DNA from: a virus
DNA length: 64,000 bases
Strand: one strand, 5' to 3'
IMG/VR virus record: IMGVR_UViG_3300021141_000001
The position numbers and the translations under genes were made by a program. This document shows, piece after piece, positions 3,255 through 53,357 of the stretch. A model generated the notes under the pieces. That model was not told the origin of the DNA, did not search any database, and saw only the letters and a program-made list of their open reading frames with translations. Numbering within the stretch: the first letter of the stretch is position 1; each line of letters opens with the position of its first letter.

Positions 3255-3722
3255 ATGAAAACTATCTTAACAAAAGAAGGAAAAATAAAACTTCAAGAAG
3301 AATTAAATTTCCTATTGACAGTTGAAAAAAATCGAGTGATAAATGAGCTATCAGAAGCTCGTGAAAGTGGTACATTAGAAGAAAATACACAATACTTAAT
3401 TGCTAAAGAAGAGTATGAGAAGGTTCAAAAGAAAATTGAAAAGCTACAATCTTTCTTAGCAAATTCAACTGTTGTTGATGTGGCTGATATTAAAACTGAC
3501 AAAGTTGCCATTTTTACAACAGTAAAAGTTTTAAATACTACTAATAGTAAAGAAATGATATTTAAGATTGTTCCAGAGAATGAAATTGATATCAAAGTAA
3601 GTAAAATATCAACAAGTAGTCCAATTGGTGCTGGTTTACTTGGAAAATCTCTAAACGAGGTTTGTGAGGTTAAAACACCAGCTGGTACATTCAGTTTTAA
3701 AATTTTAGAAATAAGTATATGA
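3255..3722 (+). CDS. greA: Transcription elongation factor GreA
   Basis: LTKEGKIKLQEEL, ARESGTLEENTQY, ISTSSPIGAGLLGK, VKTPAG. Confidence 0.9.
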   Translation: MKTILTKEGKIKLQEELNFLLTVEKNRVINELSEARESGTLEENTQYLIAKEEYEKVQKKIEKLQSFLANSTVVDVADIKTDKVAIFTTVKVLNTTNSKEMIFKIVPENEIDIKVSKISTSSPIGAGLLGKSLNEVCEVKTPAGTFSFKILEISI

Positions 3723-4131: not shown

Positions 4132-4524
4132 ATGATACAATTACCTACTAAAATATATGTTGATAATTCACCTGTTCATGGGTTGGGTGTATTTGCTAAA
4201 GAAAAAATTAACGAAGGTGAGCTAATTGAAGAATGTACAATATTAACTTTACCTATCCAGAAAGGTGAGGATTCTAATCTATTTATAGATTACAGATTTA
4301 ACTTTCCATCTGGTTTGGAATGGGAAGAACAAGTTTTGGTAATGGGTTGTGGTGGTATTTACAATCACTCTAACACACCAAATGCTCATTGGTATTCTAA
4401 TAATGAAAAAAGAACTTTTTGCTTTGTTGCTTTAAGAGATATTGAAGTTGGTGAAGAAATATTTACCTTCTATGGTGATGAGTCCTACTGGAATGATGGT
4501 AGAACATACATTGATGTTAAATGA
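4132..4524 (+). CDS. SET-domain methyltransferase
   Basis: SPVHGLGVFA, YNHSNTPN, RDIEVGEEIFTFYG. Confidence 0.9.
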   Translation: MIQLPTKIYVDNSPVHGLGVFAKEKINEGELIEECTILTLPIQKGEDSNLFIDYRFNFPSGLEWEEQVLVMGCGGIYNHSNTPNAHWYSNNEKRTFCFVALRDIEVGEEIFTFYGDESYWNDGRTYIDVK

Positions 4525-4913
4525 CAAAAGAAGAATTCATACTATTTATTGAAGATTTAGGATTTACTCAGACTTGGATGTCTAAATCAAATGGATATTC
4601 TTTAGCAACTGATTCCGCTGATCCAGCGTATAAAGTTATTGGTAATCCTAATCAAAATTTGATGGCTTTTGCTGACCAATTAAAAATCACATTAGATGAT
4701 GAAAGAGGAATTGCTCAACTTTCATTATCACAAATGAGTACTCATATGATGGCTGGTAAGAATTTTGGAAATTTTCAATTATCAACATTTGGTAATGATG
4801 GTGATTTTCAATTAGAGATATTTATGAGTTTTGTAAAAGGTGCTTTTAAGAAACCACCTAATAATATTATTCAATATATGAGAGATAAAAAAATTAGGGA
4901 TATATTAAAATAA
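4521..4913 (+). CDS. Hypothetical protein with C-terminal tag
   Basis: Ends MRDKKIRDILK. Confidence 0.65.
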   Translation: MTKEEFILFIEDLGFTQTWMSKSNGYSLATDSADPAYKVIGNPNQNLMAFADQLKITLDDERGIAQLSLSQMSTHMMAGKNFGNFQLSTFGNDGDFQLEIFMSFVKGAFKKPPNNIIQYMRDKKIRDILK

Positions 4914-5422: not shown

Positions 5423-5904
5423 TGATAAACAAGATTAATAAATTTTTTGAATTTGAACCCTTTGAAAGTAAGATGAAAAAGTCGGCTGGTGTTATTATTA
5501 TTTTAAATAATGAAAAAATATTACTTTGTCATCCATCAAATAATGATAAATGGTTTGGTTCTTACTCTTTTCCAAAAGGCGGTATTGATGAAGGTGAAAC
5601 TATTAAACAAGCTGCTTTAAGAGAGTTGTTTGAAGAGACATCTGTGAAAATTAATGATAGTATGCTTTCTGGAGAGCCACTAGTTCTTGATTATATGAAC
5701 TATAAAAAGAAAGGTGTTGTTTATAAAAGAATATATTTATTTACTTTATACATTACTGACATTTCTGAAATTGGATTAGACTCAGAAGTTATTCCAAGTG
5801 ATAAACTTCCTTTTGGTGAAATAGATTGGGCTGGCTTTATACCTAAAGAAGAAGCCAAGTTAAGATTGTTTCACAGAAGTGTTCCTATGTTAGATAAGAT
5901 ATAA
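5422..5904 (+). CDS. NUDIX hydrolase
   Basis: PKGGIDEGETIKQAALRELFEETS Nudix box. Confidence 0.9.
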   Translation: MINKINKFFEFEPFESKMKKSAGVIIILNNEKILLCHPSNNDKWFGSYSFPKGGIDEGETIKQAALRELFEETSVKINDSMLSGEPLVLDYMNYKKKGVVYKRIYLFTLYITDISEIGLDSEVIPSDKLPFGEIDWAGFIPKEEAKLRLFHRSVPMLDKI

Positions 5905-5930
5905 ACAAATCTTGTCTTTTTGGTATAAAT
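5903..5930 (+). promoter_or_regulatory. Putative phage middle-type promoter AAAC-N17/18-TATAA
   Basis: AAAC-17nt-TATAAAT; same spacing at 9038, 37044, 37950, 38624, 51457 and, on the minus strand, about 26852-26878, 56859-56885 and 58030-58058. Confidence 0.55.
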
Positions 5931-5948
5931 AAAAAATAAACTTTATTT

Positions 5949-6380
5949 ATGCCTTTACCGTTTTTTACTAATCCAAATAATAGTCCACTATCATCAGCTC
6001 TTAATAGTAATATTCCTATTGCTATGAATTATCAACTTGAAGAAAAGATTGAGTTGGATTTGAATAATCCTATATTTGTGGCTTATGTTAATACAAGTAA
6101 TCTAACAAGACAAGCCGCAGAAGAACATCTTTATAGAACTAAAAAAATATTTGATGTTTATAAAAATATCACTATTTGGGTAATTGCTTCGAATGAAACT
6201 AAAATAGAGTGTGTTTATGATGGTCAATGTAGAACTCGTGATATAGAAATAAGTGACTTAATAAAGGAGATAAATACAAGGATAGATATAATGGCTAACT
6301 CACATTCTTTTGATGATTTCAAAATTAACATCAGAGATTGGAGATTAAGCGAAATAATAAATGGCACTGAGGAAAAATAA
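5949..6380 (+). CDS. Small protein: portal (T4 gp20-like) fragment plus C-terminal tag
   Basis: AYVNTSNLTRQAAEEHL resembles gp20 WYVDTGNMPARKAAEHM; ends IRDWRLSEIING. Confidence 0.6.
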   Translation: MPLPFFTNPNNSPLSSALNSNIPIAMNYQLEEKIELDLNNPIFVAYVNTSNLTRQAAEEHLYRTKKIFDVYKNITIWVIASNETKIECVYDGQCRTRDIEISDLIKEINTRIDIMANSHSFDDFKINIRDWRLSEIINGTEEK

Positions 6381-6915: not shown

Positions 6916-6986
6916 GGTCGGGTGACCGAGTGTTTAGGTGAAGGTTCGCAAAACCTTTTACGGTGGTTAAAATCCATCCCCGACCT
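6916..6986 (+). tRNA. tRNA-Cys (GCA), no encoded CCA, non-canonical C33 and T-loop
   Basis: Acceptor GGTCGGG/CCCGACC, D-arm ACC..GGT, anticodon arm AAGGT-TCGCAAA-ACCTT, T-arm GGTGG-TTAAAAT-CCATC, discriminator U. Confidence 0.85.
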
Positions 6987-7006
6987 CTAAAAATTAAAAA
7001 TGTATA

Positions 7007-7606
7007 ATGGCAAATAAATTTGTATCCAGTACTCTATCCTTAGATGATTTAAGGATGGAGTTTAGAAATTTTAAATTAAAATCAATCAATAATGAAATTG
7101 AGTTCAAGATTTCAGACTCAATGATTGATGAAAATAAAGAGTTGTTAACTTTTATAACTGATACTTTTCCAAATGATATCATTACAGGTTCACTTGCTCT
7201 TAAACTATTTGGTTTAATTAGTAGAAAAAGTAACGATGTTGATATCTTAATTAAAGATAAAAATCGTTATGATAAATATATTCTTGATGGTTATGATGAT
7301 GAATTTACAACTCCTAATCGTTTAGGTTACAAACCATTTAAATATAAAAAAGGAATTTTTTCAAAAGAAGTAGAATATAATGTTGATTTCTTTGAGGATA
7401 AAAATGTTTCTTTTCTTGAGTTTACTATTGATATTAGTACAACATTTCATTCTAATATTAAAAAAATTAAAATTCATAACCCTTTAGAGATTATGGATTA
7501 TAAATTAGGTATTTTTGCTAATCCTAAAGTTGGTAGAACAACAGGTAGAAAACACAACGAAGATTTGACTCAAATTTTTAGTCAAGCTCCTTGGCAAGTT
7601 AAATAG
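7007..7606 (+). CDS. Pol-beta-superfamily nucleotidyltransferase-like protein
   Basis: ITGSLAL...NDVDIL and VDFF (GS-DxD-D pattern); N-terminal FRNFKLKSI tag-like segment. Confidence 0.65.
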   Translation: MANKFVSSTLSLDDLRMEFRNFKLKSINNEIEFKISDSMIDENKELLTFITDTFPNDIITGSLALKLFGLISRKSNDVDILIKDKNRYDKYILDGYDDEFTTPNRLGYKPFKYKKGIFSKEVEYNVDFFEDKNVSFLEFTIDISTTFHSNIKKIKIHNPLEIMDYKLGIFANPKVGRTTGRKHNEDLTQIFSQAPWQVK

Positions 7607-9594: not shown

Positions 9595-9876
9595 ATGGAA
9601 AAGAAAGATTCAAATAGTAGTGGATTTGCCGAAATATTTTTTAGTAAACTAAAAGAACAATCATTTACAATTATTTTAATGGTTGGTATGTTAATATACC
9701 AAAACAAAGTATTTAATGAACAAGTCATAAGATATGAAAAACTTGTTAATGAAAAACAACAATACATTGATAAGTTAATTGAAGACCAAAGACAGAGAGC
9801 TATTTTAAGAGAACAGTATTTGTTACAACAAAGAGATTCCTATGTTGATGATTTAATAAAAAATAATCATAAGTAA
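9595..9876 (+). CDS. Small membrane protein with coiled coil (holin-like)
   Basis: Single TM segment FTIILMVGMLIY followed by a helical region. Confidence 0.5.
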   Translation: MEKKDSNSSGFAEIFFSKLKEQSFTIILMVGMLIYQNKVFNEQVIRYEKLVNEKQQYIDKLIEDQRQRAILREQYLLQQRDSYVDDLIKNNHK

Positions 9877-18353: not shown

Positions 18354-21300
18354 ATGTGGACATACAATACTGATTATAGCAAATGGTACGCTAATGATGA
18401 CTCAATCTCAAAGAATGATTTTGATTTTTTAAAACAAGAGTTAAAATCTACTAGGTTTTATTCAAGATGTTTAAGTGGTGCTACATATTTACCTGTAAAT
18501 AGTCTTACTAATATTTATGATATACTAGGAAGTTATCAACAAAGAACATGGTATATTAGTACATTGGGTTCACAATATAGTGTTACATCTATTCCTTCTC
18601 AACATGCTTCACCTATAGATTCAAATACTTCAAATGATTATTATACAAAGTATTTATCTGAATATGGCTTAACATTAAAAAACTTATTTACGCCTTATAG
18701 ATTAATAAAAGACGCTTCAAAGAACTTTTACTATGTTGATGTTGCTACAACTGAACAGATTGATTTAACAACAGTAACAAAAGACTATTATATAGATGGT
18801 GTTAAATTATTAAATGGTCATAGAGTTTTAATTAAGGATCAAAAATTAAGTATTGTTTTACTAAACACTGCTGATCCTAATACTTATTTTACAGGACAAT
18901 ATAGCATTATACAAGATTTAGGTGGAACAATTGAGTACCAATATTACAGTGAGGAAAATGGTATTTATATTTATAATGATGGTATTTTAGTTAGAGATTC
19001 TGATTTAGATGATTATAGTAGATGTGTGAGATATAGTGTCTCTGTTAAACTGGGTAATACTAATACTGATAAACAATTTCATTTATCTAGACTACTAAGC
19101 GGTTATTTTCCTACAGTTTCATTAGCACAGCCTATTGAGTTTAAAGAAAAACATAACTGGATTTTAAGAAATCGAGTTGATTATAATAATTTATTTGAGA
19201 TAAACTACTATGATATAATTAAACATGGTACACAATCATATAATTATGAAGGTATTACTTATAGTGTTCCTGAAAGAACTTTATCTGTTGGTGAATTTGG
19301 TATTATTTTAAATACACAAGAAACTAAATCAAATATTATTAAAAATAAATATAAAGTTAATCTAAGAAGTATTACAGAGACCTCAAATTTTTATTGGATA
19401 TGTGGTGATGAAAATACACTTTTAAGAGTTAGAAAACATGATTTTTACATTGATAGAATTTTACTTGAAAATATTCCAACAACTTTACCAAATTTAATAA
19501 AAACTAATCTTTCTTCTGTTTCATTTTTTAATGATTTAGTAGGTGTTGTTGTTGGTGAATTGAATACTATACTTTACACCAAAAATGGTGGTTACAAATG
19601 GGAAAGAATTGAAGTTGCTGATTTTAGTGAATATAACTATAATAAAGCTTTGTATTCTACAGGTTCTAGTTTTTTTGTAGCTGGTGATAATGGTGTTTTA
19701 TTAGAATTTATTAATAGTATCGCCGGTTGGACAGCTTATAAAAGAAGAGTTTCTCAAATTGAAGATTCGGTTGATGAGTACATATTAGTTGAAAATATTA
19801 ATGATTTATACAAAACTACAATTTCTAGTTGGAATGTTAGTTATAACTATTATACACAATCTATACCAACAAGTAAAGAATTACTTTTCTTAGTTACGAA
19901 TAATAGTAAAATTATAGCTTATGATGTTAATAACTCATTCTCTCAAATAGGTACAGATTTTATTTACTTTGACTTTGGAAAAGAGTATAGTGATATTAGA
20001 AATATTACACAAAGACAAGGTACTAATAAATTTTATTTTACAGGTACTGATCCAGTTAGTGGTGATGATGGTATATTCTCATTTGATATAAGTAGTTTTA
20101 GTACATTAGGTACTGGTAGTTCTTATTCAAATACAACAGTTGGTGTTAATGCTACTTATGAATATGCTGCTTATCCAAATGAAATATTTGATTATAATGG
20201 TACAAATTTATTAATATGTGGTAATACTTCATTATTAGGAACTTCCACATATTCAGTGTTAAATTTTAACTCATTAGATTCTACATTTGAAGATAATTTA
20301 AAATCTAAGTTATTAGTTATTGATTATGATATTGCTTCTAAACTAAATTTCTTTACAGATGCTGGTGAATATAGATTACCAAATTCAGTTACTTTTAGCA
20401 ATACTACTTTGAATACTATAAATTCAAAAATTGGATTTAAGCCAATTCAACATCCATTAACGTCTACTAATAATGGTACTTATTCAGAAACAAACTGGAT
20501 TACATATTGGACAGATGCTGAAAAAACATTTGAGTATTATAATTTTACTCCAATGGATGAGTCAACTAAAGTTTTAATATCAACAACTTTTTCATATGAT
20601 ACTAATTCTACCTCTATATCATATAACAATACTCAAATTACAGCTTCTGCTTCATTAGTTTCTTTGTTAGCACCGGCTATTACAATGTTCAATTTAGTAA
20701 AAAGTGTATCAATTAAAAGTGCTGGTACTGGTTATTCAACCGCTTCAAATGTTGCCACAACTGGTGGTTCTGGCACAGGATTAAAATTAAATATAACAGC
20801 TTCTGGTGGTTTGATAACATCAGTTAAAGTAGCTGTTAAAGGTGAGGGCTATAACGTTGGTGATGTTGTTACTGTTACTGGTGGTACACTTGGTAAAATA
20901 AAAATTGACTCAATTGAGAATCATTCTCAAAGTAGATTTAATGGATATGGAATGCCTTCTATAACTGCTGTTCCTACTACTGGTGTTGCTGGTGCTTATA
21001 GAATATTTATTTATGATTATTTAATGATTTATAAAGTTGGATTAAGTTATCCAATTTCTGTTGGTGATATAATGAAATTTGAAAGTGGTATTGTTGATAC
21101 ACAATTTATTGTAAATAAAGTTATAACAATCGGTTCTTGGAAATTTATTTATATGTACACTGAATTTAATCAAAATATGATAACTGATTTATTGAATACA
21201 TTAAGTAATGTTACACTTACGAATTTAAATAAATACACAAATGTTGCTGAGTTAAAAGGTAGATTTAATGAACACCCTATTTCAAATGCTTATAAATTAG

Positions 21301-24300
21301 ATTATTTAGATTCCTATGGTGATGTAACAACTGCTACATCAAGTGTTTTTCAATTAAGTGCTAGATTTAATAATCTAACTTCTTATTATAATTTACAAAC
21401 ATCAGTTAATGTTGGTACTAATACTCAAATAGTGCCTTATGTTTCAAACTATCAGTTTTCAGGTGGTGTTTCTTACTCAATCTCAACTACTGGTACAACT
21501 TACAGTTTTGCTAATGGTGTTTCTGCTAGTAATACTCTTACGCCGGTTGCTGGTCTCCTTGGACTTCCTGGTTTTGGAGGTGATGGTTCACCTGCTATCT
21601 CTGCTAAATTACAACTTCCAATTGGTATAAATTATGATAATGTTGGAAATTTATATATTGCGGACAGTTCAAATAGAAGAATCAGAAAGGTTAGTGCTGG
21701 TGTTGGTGGAATAATAACTACAATTGCTGGTATTAATAATCCATTAGGTAATTATAGTGGTGATACTTCTCCGGCTATTGCTGCTGAACTTGAATCGGTT
21801 ATTGATGTTGTTGTAGATAATATGTACAATGTTTATATAGTTGGTAATGCTGCGTCTAGTATTCATAATGTTATTCGTAAAATTGATTTTGGAACAGGTA
21901 AAATAGATGTTTTTTCCGGAGGAGGAGGTGCTGGATATAACGGTGATGGTGGTCCTTGTTCTGACCCAAGTGTTCAGTTTAATAATCCAAAAGGATTACA
22001 TATCTCAAATTTTGGATTTGGAACCGCTAATCCAGTTTTATATGTTGCTGATTATGATAATCATGCTATAAGACAAATAGATTTAGTTACCAATATAATT
22101 ACAACAGTTGCTGGTGATGGAACTTCAGGTTGGAGTGGTGATGGTGGCTTAGCAACTTCTGCTCAATTAAAAAAACCTACTTCAATAACAACTGATTCTT
22201 TTGGTAATCTATATATAGCCGATACTGAAAATTATAGAGTTAGAAAAGTAGATATAGTAACAGGTGAGATATCAACTTTTGCTGGTAATGGTACTAGTGG
22301 TAATACAGGTGATGGTGGTTTAGCAAATATTGCTAGATTAGGTAGTGTTTCTGGAGTTACTGTTGATAATCTTAATAATCTTTATATAACATCTAATTCC
22401 GGTTCATCATATAGAATTCGTAGAGTTGATACAGCCGGTATAATATCAACATTTACAATAGGAACATCTGCTATATCTAAAGTAGTAGTATCTCCATTGG
22501 GTGATATTGTATTTTCGGTTCCAGGTAGTAGTATTGTTCAAAAACAAGCACCACCAGAAACCAAAGCAATTGTTTCTAGTATTCTAACATTTTTACCTAA
22601 TGAAAATGATACGGTTTTATTAAAACTAAATGGTATTTCTACTACATTTACATTTAAAACGAGTCCTTCGGCAGGAACAGATGTACTAATCGGTTCGAGT
22701 ATAAATGATTGTTTGAATAATCTTAAAACTAAGATACAGTCAATTGTCATATATTCAACATATCTTTCTGATGTTAGTGTTACTAGTAGTAATATAACTT
22801 TAACAATGGCAGATAATTATGGTTCTATACCTAATAATAATTCTAATTGGAATATATCTTTCTTTGACACTATAATAACTAATGAAGTTAATGCTATTTT
22901 ATCTGGATCAATGTCTGTTCCACCAATTAATGGCAATACTGCTGTAATATCTATTAATTCTATTAATACAACATATACATTTAAAAATATTGTTATTAAT
23001 CCAACAACTGATATTCAAATAGCTGGTACATTAACCGGCACATTAACAAATCTATTACTTGGTATAACTTCTTCATATCCAACTTATATATCACCAACTT
23101 CTTCTATTATTGGTGGTGATACAATTAATCTTGTGGTTAAACCAAATTATGGTTCTATTCCAAATATAAATTCTAATTGGGGATTAACTTATAGCCTAAC
23201 AGGTGGTGGTAACTATCAAACTAACTCATATAATATGGTTTACACCAATAGTTTCTTAAAATTTGGTTACTCTCCTACATATAATTTGTTAGATTATCTA
23301 ACAAACATAAATAATATCAATGATGTTAATCCTAAATTTTATGCTACTAAAGAGTATTTAGCTATGCCTCATTATGAAGGATTGCCTTTAGGTAGTTTAA
23401 CATTCTCTACTGTTTATATTGATTATAATGGCATGACTGCTTCACTCGACTTAAATTCACAAGGTAATAAAATTACATTTGGTTCAGATTTAAAATTAGA
23501 ATGGGAGAGTATATTTATTAATACTTTTGTTGATGTTATTATTCATGGTACATCTGATTATACAACTGAAAGACTGCTTGTAATGGACAAGTATTATGAC
23601 TCATTAAATGATTTTTATATAATTGAGTTTCATAAAAGATTAAACTTTAATTTGGGTGACTCTGTAATTGGCAATGGTGGTACTTTAGATATTATTTCCA
23701 GAAGACATTTATTTCAAATAAGCGATGATTTACAAGAATTAAATAATATACAAAGAACTAAAGGTAAATCAAACTCTTGGAAAGACCAAGGTCAGTATAC
23801 ATATGATACATATGAAAATGAATTGAATTTTAAAATTCCTACAGATTCGTATGCTAAGATATTACTTTCAGACACAGACACAATTCAGTCTTTATCTTCA
23901 ATAATTTATATTGATTATAAAAATGAATTGGCTATGAATATAACAAAATTGGCTAAAGAATATAATATAGCTATAACAAATACCTTAAATTATACAAACA
24001 AACTTTATATCTCATGTGCTGAAAAACATGACTTAATAACTGGCGAAGGTGTTGTTTTGGAATTTACAGGTGGTGTTGGATCGTCACAGGAATTAAATCC
24101 TCAATACTCTGGTTATCATGTTATTACAAAAATAAATGAATATGATTTTATTACTGATATTGATTATGGTCAATATCCAACTGTTGGTATTGATAGTGGT
24201 TATGTTAAATATACTAAACAAGATCCATTCTTAAATTATGAACCAGTTGATTTAATTGATTTAGGTGTTGATGGTAAAGGTAAAATGGCTTTAGAGTTAT

Positions 24301-25556
24301 CAACTGAAAGCGTAAAGATATCAAATAGTGTTTATAGTTTAATTGATGTTGATTTTGAAAAATATAGATTTAGATTAATTGATGGTTTGAATATAGAAAC
24401 TGTTAATTTACAATATTCTTGGTTATTAGAAGCTGAGTTATCTGGTGCTCTTATAGGATTAGACACAAATGGATTAGTTTGGTACAAAGGTACTTGGATA
24501 TTTGGTAGATGGTTTGGTGGTACTTGGCAGTCAGGTGTTTGGATGTCAGGTGACTGGTATGATGGTACTTGGAACTCTAATATAGTTACTGATAAAAAAT
24601 TAACAGCAGAGGTTGATACCAAAAGTGTTGATTTTGAACAATCATTCTGGTATACTGGTAGATGGTATGATGGTACTTGGAATGCGGGTATTTGGAATGG
24701 TGGTAGATGGTATGGCGGTACTTGGAATAATGGTATGTGGCATAAAGGTACTTGGAATGATGGTACTTGGAACAATGGTAATTTCGAGGGTGGTATTTGG
24801 GTATTAGGTACTTGGAATAGAGGAGTATTTAATTGTGATAATGAGCCAGCTTATTGGTTAGATGGTAAATGGTATGGTGGTGACTTTGAAAATGGTATGT
24901 GGTATAACGGATATTGGGAACAAAAAAATACATCATCTAGATTTGGTACAAAGTCATTTAACAGTAGAACAGCCAACTGGCAGGCAGGTACTTGGGTGAG
25001 TGGTTCTTTCTTCTCATTTATAAATACTAATGATCAAGGAGTATTAGATGTAAGTGATGTACATAAATATTCTATTTGGAAAACAGGTCAGTGGTTATCA
25101 GGTGAATGGTATGGTGGTATTGCTTATAACATGGACTTTAAAATAGGTACCTGGTATGGTGGTATATTAGAAGATATTGAAGTTATTGCTATTGATATAA
25201 TTAAAAATACATTTACATTAAATGGTATATTTAAATTTAATATTGGTGATACTATAAATATCATTGATAATCAAATTGATAATGCTAATTCAGTTTATGG
25301 TTCTAATTTGAATCCAGGTGTTTATAGAGTTTTATATCAAACAGAAGACACTACAAATAAGAGAACTATTCTTTATGTAGATTCTAATCTAAATGGACCA
25401 GCAGTCACATCAGTAACCGATACAGGACTAAGAGTCGTTTCTAAATTTAAGAACTTAAATTGGAAGTCGGGTATTTGGACTAATGGTATTTATGAAACAG
25501 GTCTTTGGGAAGGTGGTATTTGGTATAATGGTGTGTTCAGTGGAACATGGTCATAA
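18354..25556 (+). CDS. Giant virion structural protein (baseplate/fibre-like) with NHL repeats and C-terminal GxW repeats
   Basis: 2400 aa; IDGVKLLNGHRVLIKDQ..ENGIY fibre/baseplate motif; GDGGxATxAxL NHL repeats; GTWxxGxW arrays. Confidence 0.75.
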   Translation: MWTYNTDYSKWYANDDSISKNDFDFLKQELKSTRFYSRCLSGATYLPVNSLTNIYDILGSYQQRTWYISTLGSQYSVTSIPSQHASPIDSNTSNDYYTKYLSEYGLTLKNLFTPYRLIKDASKNFYYVDVATTEQIDLTTVTKDYYIDGVKLLNGHRVLIKDQKLSIVLLNTADPNTYFTGQYSIIQDLGGTIEYQYYSEENGIYIYNDGILVRDSDLDDYSRCVRYSVSVKLGNTNTDKQFHLSRLLSGYFPTVSLAQPIEFKEKHNWILRNRVDYNNLFEINYYDIIKHGTQSYNYEGITYSVPERTLSVGEFGIILNTQETKSNIIKNKYKVNLRSITETSNFYWICGDENTLLRVRKHDFYIDRILLENIPTTLPNLIKTNLSSVSFFNDLVGVVVGELNTILYTKNGGYKWERIEVADFSEYNYNKALYSTGSSFFVAGDNGVLLEFINSIAGWTAYKRRVSQIEDSVDEYILVENINDLYKTTISSWNVSYNYYTQSIPTSKELLFLVTNNSKIIAYDVNNSFSQIGTDFIYFDFGKEYSDIRNITQRQGTNKFYFTGTDPVSGDDGIFSFDISSFSTLGTGSSYSNTTVGVNATYEYAAYPNEIFDYNGTNLLICGNTSLLGTSTYSVLNFNSLDSTFEDNLKSKLLVIDYDIASKLNFFTDAGEYRLPNSVTFSNTTLNTINSKIGFKPIQHPLTSTNNGTYSETNWITYWTDAEKTFEYYNFTPMDESTKVLISTTFSYDTNSTSISYNNTQITASASLVSLLAPAITMFNLVKSVSIKSAGTGYSTASNVATTGGSGTGLKLNITASGGLITSVKVAVKGEGYNVGDVVTVTGGTLGKIKIDSIENHSQSRFNGYGMPSITAVPTTGVAGAYRIFIYDYLMIYKVGLSYPISVGDIMKFESGIVDTQFIVNKVITIGSWKFIYMYTEFNQNMITDLLNTLSNVTLTNLNKYTNVAELKGRFNEHPISNAYKLDYLDSYGDVTTATSSVFQLSARFNNLTSYYNLQTSVNVGTNTQIVPYVSNYQFSGGVSYSISTTGTTYSFANGVSASNTLTPVAGLLGLPGFGGDGSPAISAKLQLPIGINYDNVGNLYIADSSNRRIRKVSAGVGGIITTIAGINNPLGNYSGDTSPAIAAELESVIDVVVDNMYNVYIVGNAASSIHNVIRKIDFGTGKIDVFSGGGGAGYNGDGGPCSDPSVQFNNPKGLHISNFGFGTANPVLYVADYDNHAIRQIDLVTNIITTVAGDGTSGWSGDGGLATSAQLKKPTSITTDSFGNLYIADTENYRVRKVDIVTGEISTFAGNGTSGNTGDGGLANIARLGSVSGVTVDNLNNLYITSNSGSSYRIRRVDTAGIISTFTIGTSAISKVVVSPLGDIVFSVPGSSIVQKQAPPETKAIVSSILTFLPNENDTVLLKLNGISTTFTFKTSPSAGTDVLIGSSINDCLNNLKTKIQSIVIYSTYLSDVSVTSSNITLTMADNYGSIPNNNSNWNISFFDTIITNEVNAILSGSMSVPPINGNTAVISINSINTTYTFKNIVINPTTDIQIAGTLTGTLTNLLLGITSSYPTYISPTSSIIGGDTINLVVKPNYGSIPNINSNWGLTYSLTGGGNYQTNSYNMVYTNSFLKFGYSPTYNLLDYLTNINNINDVNPKFYATKEYLAMPHYEGLPLGSLTFSTVYIDYNGMTASLDLNSQGNKITFGSDLKLEWESIFINTFVDVIIHGTSDYTTERLLVMDKYYDSLNDFYIIEFHKRLNFNLGDSVIGNGGTLDIISRRHLFQISDDLQELNNIQRTKGKSNSWKDQGQYTYDTYENELNFKIPTDSYAKILLSDTDTIQSLSSIIYIDYKNELAMNITKLAKEYNIAITNTLNYTNKLYISCAEKHDLITGEGVVLEFTGGVGSSQELNPQYSGYHVITKINEYDFITDIDYGQYPTVGIDSGYVKYTKQDPFLNYEPVDLIDLGVDGKGKMALELSTESVKISNSVYSLIDVDFEKYRFRLIDGLNIETVNLQYSWLLEAELSGALIGLDTNGLVWYKGTWIFGRWFGGTWQSGVWMSGDWYDGTWNSNIVTDKKLTAEVDTKSVDFEQSFWYTGRWYDGTWNAGIWNGGRWYGGTWNNGMWHKGTWNDGTWNNGNFEGGIWVLGTWNRGVFNCDNEPAYWLDGKWYGGDFENGMWYNGYWEQKNTSSRFGTKSFNSRTANWQAGTWVSGSFFSFINTNDQGVLDVSDVHKYSIWKTGQWLSGEWYGGIAYNMDFKIGTWYGGILEDIEVIAIDIIKNTFTLNGIFKFNIGDTINIIDNQIDNANSVYGSNLNPGVYRVLYQTEDTTNKRTILYVDSNLNGPAVTSVTDTGLRVVSKFKNLNWKSGIWTNGIYETGLWEGGIWYNGVFSGTWS
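24478..25161 (+). repeat. Degenerate 15-bp coding repeat (GxW pentapeptide)
   Basis: Recurring GGTACTTGG/TGGTATGGT encoding W-x-x-G-x. Confidence 0.7.
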
Positions 25557-42357: not shown

Positions 42358-42549
42358 ATGTTGATCGTAGAGGTTGAAGGAAAACTAACAATTGAAAAAG
42401 CTCTTAAAATTCTTAAAAGAAAATGGGACAAAACTAAAGCTATGAAAGAGCTTAGAGGAAGAAAAGAATTTACTAAAAAGTCTGTAAAAAGAAGAGCTGA
42501 AGTAACAAGAGCCGCTTATATTCAGAAGAAATACAGAAGTAATGATTAA
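42358..42549 (+). CDS. rpsU: Ribosomal protein bS21
   Basis: IEKALKILKRK..KTKAMKELRGRKEFTKKSVKRR..RAAY. Confidence 0.9.
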   Translation: MLIVEVEGKLTIEKALKILKRKWDKTKAMKELRGRKEFTKKSVKRRAEVTRAAYIQKKYRSND

Positions 42550-42841
42550 GAAGTTACTTAGTTTATTTCCCAATCAAAATAATAAAACTTATGATTTAGG
42601 AAAATTACAAAAGTCTGGATTTATATCATCTTTACCTGATATGTCTGGTTGTCCTAATTGTAAAAGTAAAAATATATCTTGGAAGTTCTTTATACCAACA
42701 GATGGTTCTAAACCAACTATTCCATCACAAAGTGTTTGTAATGATTGTGGATATAAAGATGAAAAAGGTCAGTTTGAAATGACAAATAAATCGTTACTTA
42801 GAGAGAAAAAAATTAATCAAATATTAGATGAGTTTCAATAA
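42542..42841 (+). CDS. Zinc-ribbon protein with C-terminal tag
   Basis: CPNC..CNDCGY; ends LREKKINQILDEFQ. Confidence 0.65.
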   Translation: MIKKLLSLFPNQNNKTYDLGKLQKSGFISSLPDMSGCPNCKSKNISWKFFIPTDGSKPTIPSQSVCNDCGYKDEKGQFEMTNKSLLREKKINQILDEFQ

Positions 42842-52223: not shown

Positions 52224-52454
52224 ATGAAAGAAGAATATTACAAAGACATATTTGGTGGTAAAAAATATGGCGACTATATGGTTTATGGTTTAGATAAATC
52301 TAAAGAATCTACATATAGTGATTACACTGATTTACTTGACCAAATGAACGCAACATCCTTCACTGAAGAATCTGAAGAACAAAAAGCTATTCGTGAAGCA
52401 AAAGAAAAGGCTGAGAAAAGAAATAATAAGATTGACCAACTTTTAGGAGAATAA
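52224..52454 (+). CDS. Hypothetical protein with C-terminal tag
   Basis: Ends KRNNKIDQLLGE. Confidence 0.65.
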   Translation: MKEEYYKDIFGGKKYGDYMVYGLDKSKESTYSDYTDLLDQMNATSFTEESEEQKAIREAKEKAEKRNNKIDQLLGE

Positions 52455-52455
52455 T

Positions 52456-53019
52456 ATGTCACAAATATCAATTGTTGATTGGATTACGGCTTTATTAATA
52501 GTCGTGCCTTTATTTGCTTTACTTATATCAATTCCAAGTTTTATCTCTATGTATAAACTTGGATTCAAAGCTTATGTAGAACAATTGATACTTTTGAAAA
52601 CAATGTTGAAAAAGATATCATCTGGATATAAAATTACTCAAAATCAAGTTTATAATTACAGCGGTGTTAGTTATAATGGACCAAAATCAGTAACACAAGT
52701 TGAAACTAATCATTTCTTTCCAATAGTTATTAATAAAGATAATCTCTTAGTTCTTAATAAGAAAGAAGGTCCATTTAATACTTTACATATTCAGTATTGT
52801 AAACATGAAAATGATAACTGGGATAATAATATGGTTGAGATAAAAACCAGCAATTGTTTATTTACTCAAATTCTAAATGACAGATTTCAAAAAAAAGTTG
52901 ATAATCTTATGAAAGAGTCTGTTCAACTTGATGGAGTTGAAAATCTAAATGAACTATTAAATAGTGAAATAACTTCTATTAAAAGAGAAGATAAACTTAA
53001 TGCTTTATTAAATGATTAA
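52456..53019 (+). CDS. Membrane-anchored protein with C-terminal tag
   Basis: N-terminal TM helix; ends KREDKLNALLND. Confidence 0.65.
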   Translation: MSQISIVDWITALLIVVPLFALLISIPSFISMYKLGFKAYVEQLILLKTMLKKISSGYKITQNQVYNYSGVSYNGPKSVTQVETNHFFPIVINKDNLLVLNKKEGPFNTLHIQYCKHENDNWDNNMVEIKTSNCLFTQILNDRFQKKVDNLMKESVQLDGVENLNELLNSEITSIKREDKLNALLND

Positions 53020-53176
53020 AAGAGACATTGTAATAGTTGACCATATCAGTATGATAAGTGCTACTACGGTAGACCCATCCATATTGGAAAAACTTAATAT
53101 TCGTGTTAAGAATATTCGTAAGTATAGAGGTCGTATTGAAAAACGAAAAGAAAAAATAAAAAGAATTTATGAATAA
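53012..53176 (+). CDS. Small protein (54 aa): DnaB/T7 gp4 helicase Walker-B-like fragment plus tag
   Basis: Manual ORF MIKRDIVIVDHISMIS...KRKEKIKRIYE, overlapping both neighbours by 8 nt. Confidence 0.55.
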   Translation: MIKRDIVIVDHISMISATTVDPSILEKLNIRVKNIRKYRGRIEKRKEKIKRIYE

Positions 53177-53357
53177 AGAAACTCTTGATATATTTGGTCA
53201 ATATCTAAATGGTAATAAACAAATTATGATGTTGAAGGCTAGGCAAACTGGTAAGTCAAGTGCCACCGCTTCTTTAATGGCTTGGAAACATCTTCATAGT
53301 AAATATGAAAGAGCAAGAACGAGAAAAGAAACCATAAAACGGCTTTTTAATATATAA
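53169..53357 (+). CDS. Small protein: terminase large subunit Walker A fragment plus tag
   Basis: IMMLKARQTGKSSATA; ends TRKETIKRLFNI. Confidence 0.7.
   Translation: MNKETLDIFGQYLNGNKQIMMLKARQTGKSSATASLMAWKHLHSKYERARTRKETIKRLFNI

Follow-up and report, generated by a model that had tools for sequence, protein, structure and literature searches.

We found that a 143-residue protein encoded in the window (the whole stretch of 64,000 nucleotides analysed here) resembles, over about 25 residues, the tip of the portal clip of T4-type phages and carries near its C-terminus a tag that other proteins of the window also bear. In the literature, we found no published description of such portal-tip-like, tagged mini-proteins. 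We propose, with a likelihood that we put somewhat short of even, that the mini-protein substitutes in soluble form for the tip of the portal clip and binds the docking partner of the clip, most likely the large terminase.

By DNA, the nearest records to the window are the uncultured phages LR745206 and LR756502 (634,780 and 642,428 bp), both of which encode a homologue of the mini-protein with 51-56% identity. The window, which has a G+C content of 29%, also encodes tail-fibre-like and virion genes, an SbcC-like nuclease, GreA/B, and a SET-domain protein. Because of these nearest records and this gene content, we take the window to be part of a huge phage genome. The transcript cleavage factor, a full GreA/GreB type, and the SET-domain protein lie at 3255-3722 and 4132-4524, just upstream of the cluster that holds the mini-gene.

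The preliminary description had placed a 143-residue protein at these coordinates, and we found that the ORF is real, running from ATG to TAA and having conserved relatives (Table 1). A longer ORF, or an extension under a recoded stop, is ruled out because an in-frame TAA lies 5' of the ORF at 5937-5939. We found relatives of the mini-protein in 262 clusters at 90% identity, none of which has a Pfam domain. A profile search of 1.8 billion representatives returned 143 family clusters at 50% identity, nearly all of them stand-alone proteins of 95 to 125 aa that cover query residues 32-139. The family core is about 105 aa, and the relatives range in length from 95 to 145 aa. Distant relatives begin near residue 32, and the AlphaFold2 pLDDT is below 60 over residues 1-31. 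The mini-protein family is old and self-standing, and its gene is real and conserved. In our searches the family was met only in huge T4-related phages, where it is without annotation. The mini-protein matched no Pfam, PHROGs, NCBIfam, or PADLOC family, and the ESM Atlas returned solely a cluster of its own kind. Neither the protein alone nor the profile matched a sequence in the PDB, and the T4 portal was absent from the results. One source labels one close relative an "antirestriction protein," a label that no model supported.

Table 1. Features of the mini-protein locus, other tagged genes, and promoter-motif sites in the window
Feature	Position in the window	Strand	Remarks
Promoter-like element	5903..5931	+	AAAC, 17 nt, TGG-TATAAATA; ends 17 nt 5' of the ATG
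Mini-protein gene, 143 aa	5949..6380	+	Whole ORF; ATG start, TAA stop
N-terminal extension, residues 1-31	5949..6041	+	Close relatives only; predicted disordered
Portal-clip-like strand, tip loop, and helix, residues 44-68	6078..6152	+	Equivalent to T4 gp20 284-308
Predicted beta-alpha-beta-beta unit, residues 42-90	6072..6218	+	AlphaFold2 with 111 sequences
Two predicted C-terminal helices, residues 94-138	6228..6362	+	AlphaFold2 model
C-terminal tag, residues 125-137	6321..6359	+	KINIRDWRLSEII; K-x3-R-[DNE]-x2-[LI]-x2-[IL]-[LI]
Partner gene, 125 aa	6361..6738	+	20-nt overlap with the mini-protein gene
Nine further tagged genes, part 1	976-1164, 1154-1483, 2359-2625, 4521-4913, 9595-9876		End R-x3-[IL]-x2-[IL]-[LF]
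Nine further tagged genes, part 2	42542-42841, 52224-52454, 52456-53019, 53169-53357		End R-x3-[IL]-x2-[IL]-[LF]
TATAAATA sites	5924, 37971, 38646	+	Genes 5949, 37997, 38674
TATAAATA site	58029	-	Gene 56895 (minus strand)

The preliminary description had compared the mini-protein with a T4 gp20 peptide and had placed the match in the probable clip region. The peptide given there is exact: RVWYVDTGNMPARKAAEHM stands at residues 283-301 of gp20 (NC_000866). This segment lies within the clip domain, and the proposed site of the match was therefore right. Residues 42-61 of the mini-protein read IFVAYVNTSNLTRQAAEEHL. BLASTP of the two proteins aligned mini-protein residues 44-85 with gp20 284-322 at 26% identity, with an E value of 0.005 for that single comparison. 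The family profile reached an HHalign probability of only 8-19% against the single T4 gp20 sequence, and the window's own copy scored 6.0 bits with a portal clip HMM (E 0.054 among the 79 window genes).

We gathered another 80 genes for T4-type portals, which included T4-like, cyanophage-like, and megaphage-like ones. In a profile-profile comparison, the 111-member family alignment matched the portal set with 88% probability (P 2.8e-6) over T4 253-308. When family residues 33-68 were compared with 85 diverse portals, HHalign gave 95% (P 4e-8) on T4 284-308. Restricting the set to T4/cyanophage-type portals gave 92% for the same family residues, and restricting it to megaphage portals gave 87%. 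These two disjoint sets thus pick out the same 25 residues. As a control, a reversed query gave a P value of 0.24. We also built clip HMMs from portals only and searched 1397 six-frame ORFs of 35 related loci, which served as a composition-matched background. We found that the family took ranks 1 to 20 with an HMM of portal residues 250-335 (best E 1.2e-5) and ranks 1 to 12 with a megaphage-only clip HMM (best E 1e-7), scores that, like the other match scores, are significant within phage-sized search spaces only and not at whole-database scale. HMMs of eight other portal segments returned background only from the same 1397 ORFs. Relatives at about 50% identity, absent from the material behind the preliminary description, matched the portal far better than the window copy did. 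A chance match would fade in relatives, and this one sharpens, which argues against chance. As judged from sequence, the resemblance to the portal clip is real at the level of the family and weak in the window's own copy.

The family also follows the portal of its own clade. The portal clip of related huge phages reads FTIPIKGLSRQRAEEQIGQLI / FTIPIKGLSRQRAEEQIGQLIHDY; its counterpart in the mini-protein of the same 634-kb phage, VYVNVGGLSRQRAEETIQHL, is identical to it at 11 of 18 residues. In T4, residues N291, M292, R295, and K296 at the clip tip face or contact gp17 (PMC4493910). At the equivalent positions, the family has G/N (85%), L/M/I (74%), Q (53%), and R/K (50%), with the consensus G/N-L/M-S-R-Q-R, and the clade's own portal has the same residues there. 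In five of seven same-genome pairs, the tip loop had the L/M and S/P residues of the own portal; two of the seven genomes are closely related to each other. We found that synonymous sites differ between the portal and mini-gene DNA in same-genome pairs, and we therefore rejected recent gene conversion from the portal. By these measures (11/18 residues, the seven pairs, and the megaphage clip HMM with E 1e-7), the mini-protein resembles one of the phage's own virion proteins.

The common part comprises the strand, tip loop, and first helix only, about 25 residues. Over this part, we found the clip strand, tip loop, and helix alpha6 sequence of a T4-type portal (HHalign 95%; first ranks with the HMM). 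We did not find the wing-stem-clip-crown chain of about 500 to 600 aa; the mini-protein has 143 aa, and the portals of the clade have 555 to 593 aa. The portal in related huge phages matched Pfam Portal_T4 with an E value of 1e-58, and the same model found nothing at the mini-gene. Neither the window protein nor any of the 111 members matched PF07230 at E values up to 10. Because only the strand, loop, and helix are in common, we concluded that the mini-protein is neither a portal nor a truncated portal. The earlier label "portal-protein fragment" thus holds for a clip resemblance that is not due to chance, but the protein is not a piece of a portal gene and has no Pfam portal match.

We modelled the mini-protein with AlphaFold2. 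A first model, from a shallow alignment, had a pLDDT of 47 and was unusable. With a deep alignment of 111 sequences, the mean pLDDT was 78, with values of 92 to 96 over residues 41-90. The modelled elements were a strand (residues 42-48), a helix (54-68), two strands (75-81 and 85-90), and two helices (94-116 and 121-138). The modelled order of strand, helix, and two strands is the order published for the T4 clip, described as "three beta-strands and helix alpha6" (PMC4493910). The sheet of the model closes within one chain. Four fold searches placed no portal among the top matches. In the PDB, the best Foldseek match was DinI (E 0.09), with no portal near the top, and in BFVD portals appeared only at ranks 19 and 48 (E 0.2 to 0.4). 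In the wide VIA search the helical hairpin dominated, and the C-terminal helices gave generic helical-hairpin matches only. A second look with VIA-align again returned DinI (Z 4.2, rmsd 2.5 A, 49 residues aligned, 2% identity). DinI (PDB 1ghh, 7ywa) is the best structural neighbour of residues 41-92, itself a beta-alpha-beta-beta unit, but its Z score is far below kinship level and the mini-protein has no RecA-related context. The monomer model is a poor probe of the clip fold because the clip sheet of solved portals spans two subunits. The fold comparison therefore speaks neither for nor against the objection, raised in the preliminary description, that the predicted fold might be unrelated to the clip domain.

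The preliminary description had also reported a tag at the C-terminus. We found that the tag is a real and widespread C-terminal motif. The mini-protein ends ...INIRDWRLSEIINGTEEK, and its tagged end is KINIRDWRLSEIINGTEEK. The protein does not end at the tag, as had been thought; six more residues follow. We counted genes in which R-x3-[ILVM]-x2-[ILVM]-[ILVFM] ends at most 10 residues from the C-terminus and took the expectation from the internal frequency of the motif. The motif was present in 10 of the 79 window genes, with 0.41 expected (P 1.5e-11). The tag is thus real and common to about 13% of the window's proteins, about one in eight, a sizeable share of the proteome encoded there. The nine further tagged genes mostly encode proteins of 60 to 190 aa. 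Within the mini-protein family, R129 of the tag is kept in 99% of the 111 members. In the model, the tag helix packs on the preceding helix, and the tag may not be a free tail in the mini-protein. A profile of the tag helix also picked other tagged window genes, and its best non-self match (E 6e-4) was the nucleotidyltransferase-like protein encoded at 7007-7606. That protein has a tag-like stretch, LDDLRMEFRNFKLKSI, near its N-terminus.

In most of 35 related loci, a partner gene lies directly 3' of the mini-gene and overlaps it. The partner protein has an acidic middle rich in aromatic residues (with many Tyr, Trp, and Asp) and contains an internal tag, LRQKRINHILG. Its family has a conserved G..IDM.SIYSK..LR.K.ID.LLG block, with the internal tag LRxKxIDxLLG, and a PT[IL]GD end. 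The partner protein matched nothing in Pfam, PHROGs, NCBIfam, PADLOC, or the ESM Atlas.

Upstream of the mini-gene, AAAC (5903-5906) is followed after 17 nt by TATAAAT (5924-5930). The AAAC-N17-TATAAAT promoter proposed in the preliminary description is there as an element, and we consider it promoter-like; an AAAC-N17-TATAAT-like layout is kept 5' of the homologous gene in at least 10 diverged loci. A standard sigma-70 scan did not pick it up. The sequence TATAAATA stands at -25 to -28 from the ATG in only four window genes, two of which have AAAC 17 nt upstream. A T4-style late promoter was considered for TATAAATA and rejected, as the octamer is not conserved in homologous loci; the TATAAT-like -10 with AAAC 17 nt upstream is. 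We claim no expression timing because the exact T4-late octamer is not conserved.

Previous work describes what this stretch does in T4. The T4 clip is exposed outside the capsid and is the attachment site of gp17 and later of the neck (PMC4493910). Alanine pairs at N291, M292, R295, and K296 abolish packaging, M292I is cold-sensitive, and a free 24-residue peptide of gp20 (288-311) binds gp17 and inhibits packaging (PMC4493910). A T4-type large terminase is encoded in the clade of the window. We infer terminase binding, an effect on packaging, and a role for the tag. According to this model, the folded part begins with the strand, tip loop, and helix, which reproduce the exposed portal clip tip, the docking surface of the large terminase and afterwards of the neck. 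The beta hairpin and two helices come next, with the tag borne on the last helix. The gene is preceded by a conserved promoter-like element of its own and is translationally coupled to a second tagged protein. The soluble, monomeric mini-protein would then bind the natural partner of the clip, most likely the T4-type large terminase, and the tag would connect the bound partner to whatever reads the tag. Packaging would be held back, sequestered, or redirected, be it of the phage's own DNA or of that of a co-infecting relative.

Should the look-alike prove to bind the large terminase or a portal sensor, nature would have its own equivalent of the 24-residue peptide that stops T4 packaging, and the mini-protein would also be a concrete, testable case of a wider design in giant phages, in which short virion-protein epitopes are fused to a proteome-wide tag. 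Few packaging motors are understood as well as the T4 type, and a protein pair (mini-protein and partner), the epitope residues 50-59, and the tag residues 125-137 are defined for study. It is possible, if rather doubtful, that huge T4-related phages run "bait plus tag" mini-proteins more generally, in which binding epitopes of virion proteins are joined to a common C-terminal tag and one hub. The bait here would be the clip tip on which terminase and neck dock, possibly with a second, wing-like portal piece. Such proteins would titrate, relocate, or destroy binders of the phage's assembly proteins; the targets might be the phage's own motor before proheads are ready, the motor of a rival phage, or host sensors. 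Even without mimicry, a tag on about 13% of window proteins points to a hitherto unknown sorting or docking system in phage genomes of more than half a megabase.

We compared the mini-protein with known systems. Its strand, tip loop, and first helix match those of the T4 gp20 clip (residues 279-358; PF07230) in sequence and in the order of elements, and where T4 has N291, M292, R295, and K296, it follows the portal of the clade. A T4-type portal has 520 to 580 aa and the family 105 to 145 aa; the mini-protein has no wing, stem, or crown, fails the Pfam model, and is unrelated in sequence over the remainder. Unlike the T4 portal, it carries the tag and has a coupled partner. The gp20 288-311 inhibitory peptide is likewise free-standing, but the mini-protein is encoded by a natural gene and is not a laboratory peptide. 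TerI of the Listeria prophage phi10403S (bioRxiv 10.1101/2025.02.27.640495) is likewise a small phage protein, proposed or shown to act on terminase, and its gene also lies beside small companion genes. This likeness is loose, and we expect no relation in sequence. TerI serves in the defence of a prophage and is paired with dedicated self-immunity proteins, whereas the mini-protein belongs to a huge, apparently lytic T4 relative and its terminase binding is putative.

We weighed four other explanations against the clip stand-in. The strand-loop-helix could be an old relic or a convergent element that mimics nothing. The mini-protein and its coupled partner would then have a function unrelated to the portal, such as regulation of neighbouring nucleotide or RNA-repair functions, and the tag alone would set the place of action. 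We consider this unlikely but far from negligible. Conservation in the family is highest at L-N-L-x-N-P-I-F, Y46, N-I-T-x-W, T-K-I-E-C-x-Y-x-G, and R129, which lie outside the portal-like stretch, and NPIF, NIT.W, and TKIEC.Y.G are without equivalent in the portal. Because the portal-like positions are less conserved than NPIF, NIT.W, TKIEC.Y.G, and R129, the core function of the family may lie outside that stretch. The portal-like motif has decayed in the window's own clade, and the fold is a generic beta-alpha-beta-beta unit. The gene neighbourhood points the same way. In 33 IMG/VR loci, on contigs of up to 436 kb, we found the recurrent order HAD, NUDIX, mini-gene, overlapping partner, nucleotidyltransferase-like gene, and ligase, and a tRNA is also among the conserved neighbours. 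These surroundings are nucleotide-metabolism and repair-type genes and not a head module, which counts against the clip stand-in. In contrast, a relic does not sit well with a stretch whose protein sequence persists, despite differing synonymous sites, in clusters less than 50% identical, nor with the way in which it follows the portal of the clade at the residues through which T4 gp20 contacts the terminase.

The tRNA in the window is a tRNA-Cys (GCA) at 6916-6987 (ARAGORN). It lies directly 3' of the gene pair and 5' of the nucleotidyltransferase-like gene and ligase.

The preliminary description had named the portal as the ligand of Avs4, and the literature agrees (PMC13581612, PMC12642450). 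The look-alike might accordingly be an immune decoy that occupies portal-monomer sensors (Avs4, Avs11) without triggering them, a candidate role that we consider improbable. Avs4 and Avs11 sense the portal, Avs4 recognises portal monomers (PMC13581612, PMC12642450), and the mini-protein presents a conserved surface of the portal in a monomer-sized form. However, Avs sensors are described as recognising whole folds and extended interfaces (PMC13581612), whereas only 25 residues of the mini-protein are portal-like and no portal fold was recovered. The mini-protein also matched no anti-defence family, PADLOC included. The stretch common to portal and mini-protein is better documented as a terminase-docking surface.

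The mini-protein could also be a portal-assembly factor or poison, in which a free clip-like unit pairs with a portal subunit and chaperones, caps, or blocks the ring. In T4, strands of adjacent subunits together form the clip sheet, and the mini-protein has the same order of strand, helix, and two strands. We consider this role quite improbable, as the hairpin strands have no sequence similarity to the other strands of the clip, their weak best match being the wing, and the sheet of the model is closed within one chain. Chance resemblance among AT-rich, Lys/Asn/Ile/Glu-rich proteins is likewise quite improbable: the window's own copy is not significant alone, and weak matches can occur elsewhere (with HMMER, the family profile matched the portal wing at 12 bits), but the controls of matched composition (1397 ORFs of the same phages, eight other portal segments, and the reversed query) and the finding of the same 25 residues by two disjoint portal sets already largely refute it.

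We asked whether residues 69-95, the hairpin, extend the clip in collinear fashion, with W77 matching portal W335. They do not; their best match is the wing (P 0.017). Residues ~60-96 (6126-6236) weakly resemble the wing of the clade's portal, FGFADNITAW...IAIEIIYDDK. When the family profile was run against the complete 634-kb genome, this wing stretch was its best match apart from self (E 0.008), with an HHalign P value of just 0.017. With a megaphage wing HMM, the family took ranks 1 to 6, but with an E value of only 0.04. The wing-like stretch is possibly a second portal-like piece, which these scores do not establish.

Two further ORFs were noted. The window holds a single ORF of 2400 aa at 18354-25556. 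In LR756502, a tagged ORF of 126 aa (L003 2317-2697), ending KRDGKLKSILGE, was the sole match (E 0.006) of a profile of the portal 80-165 segment, and this ORF may hold a portal-like piece as well.
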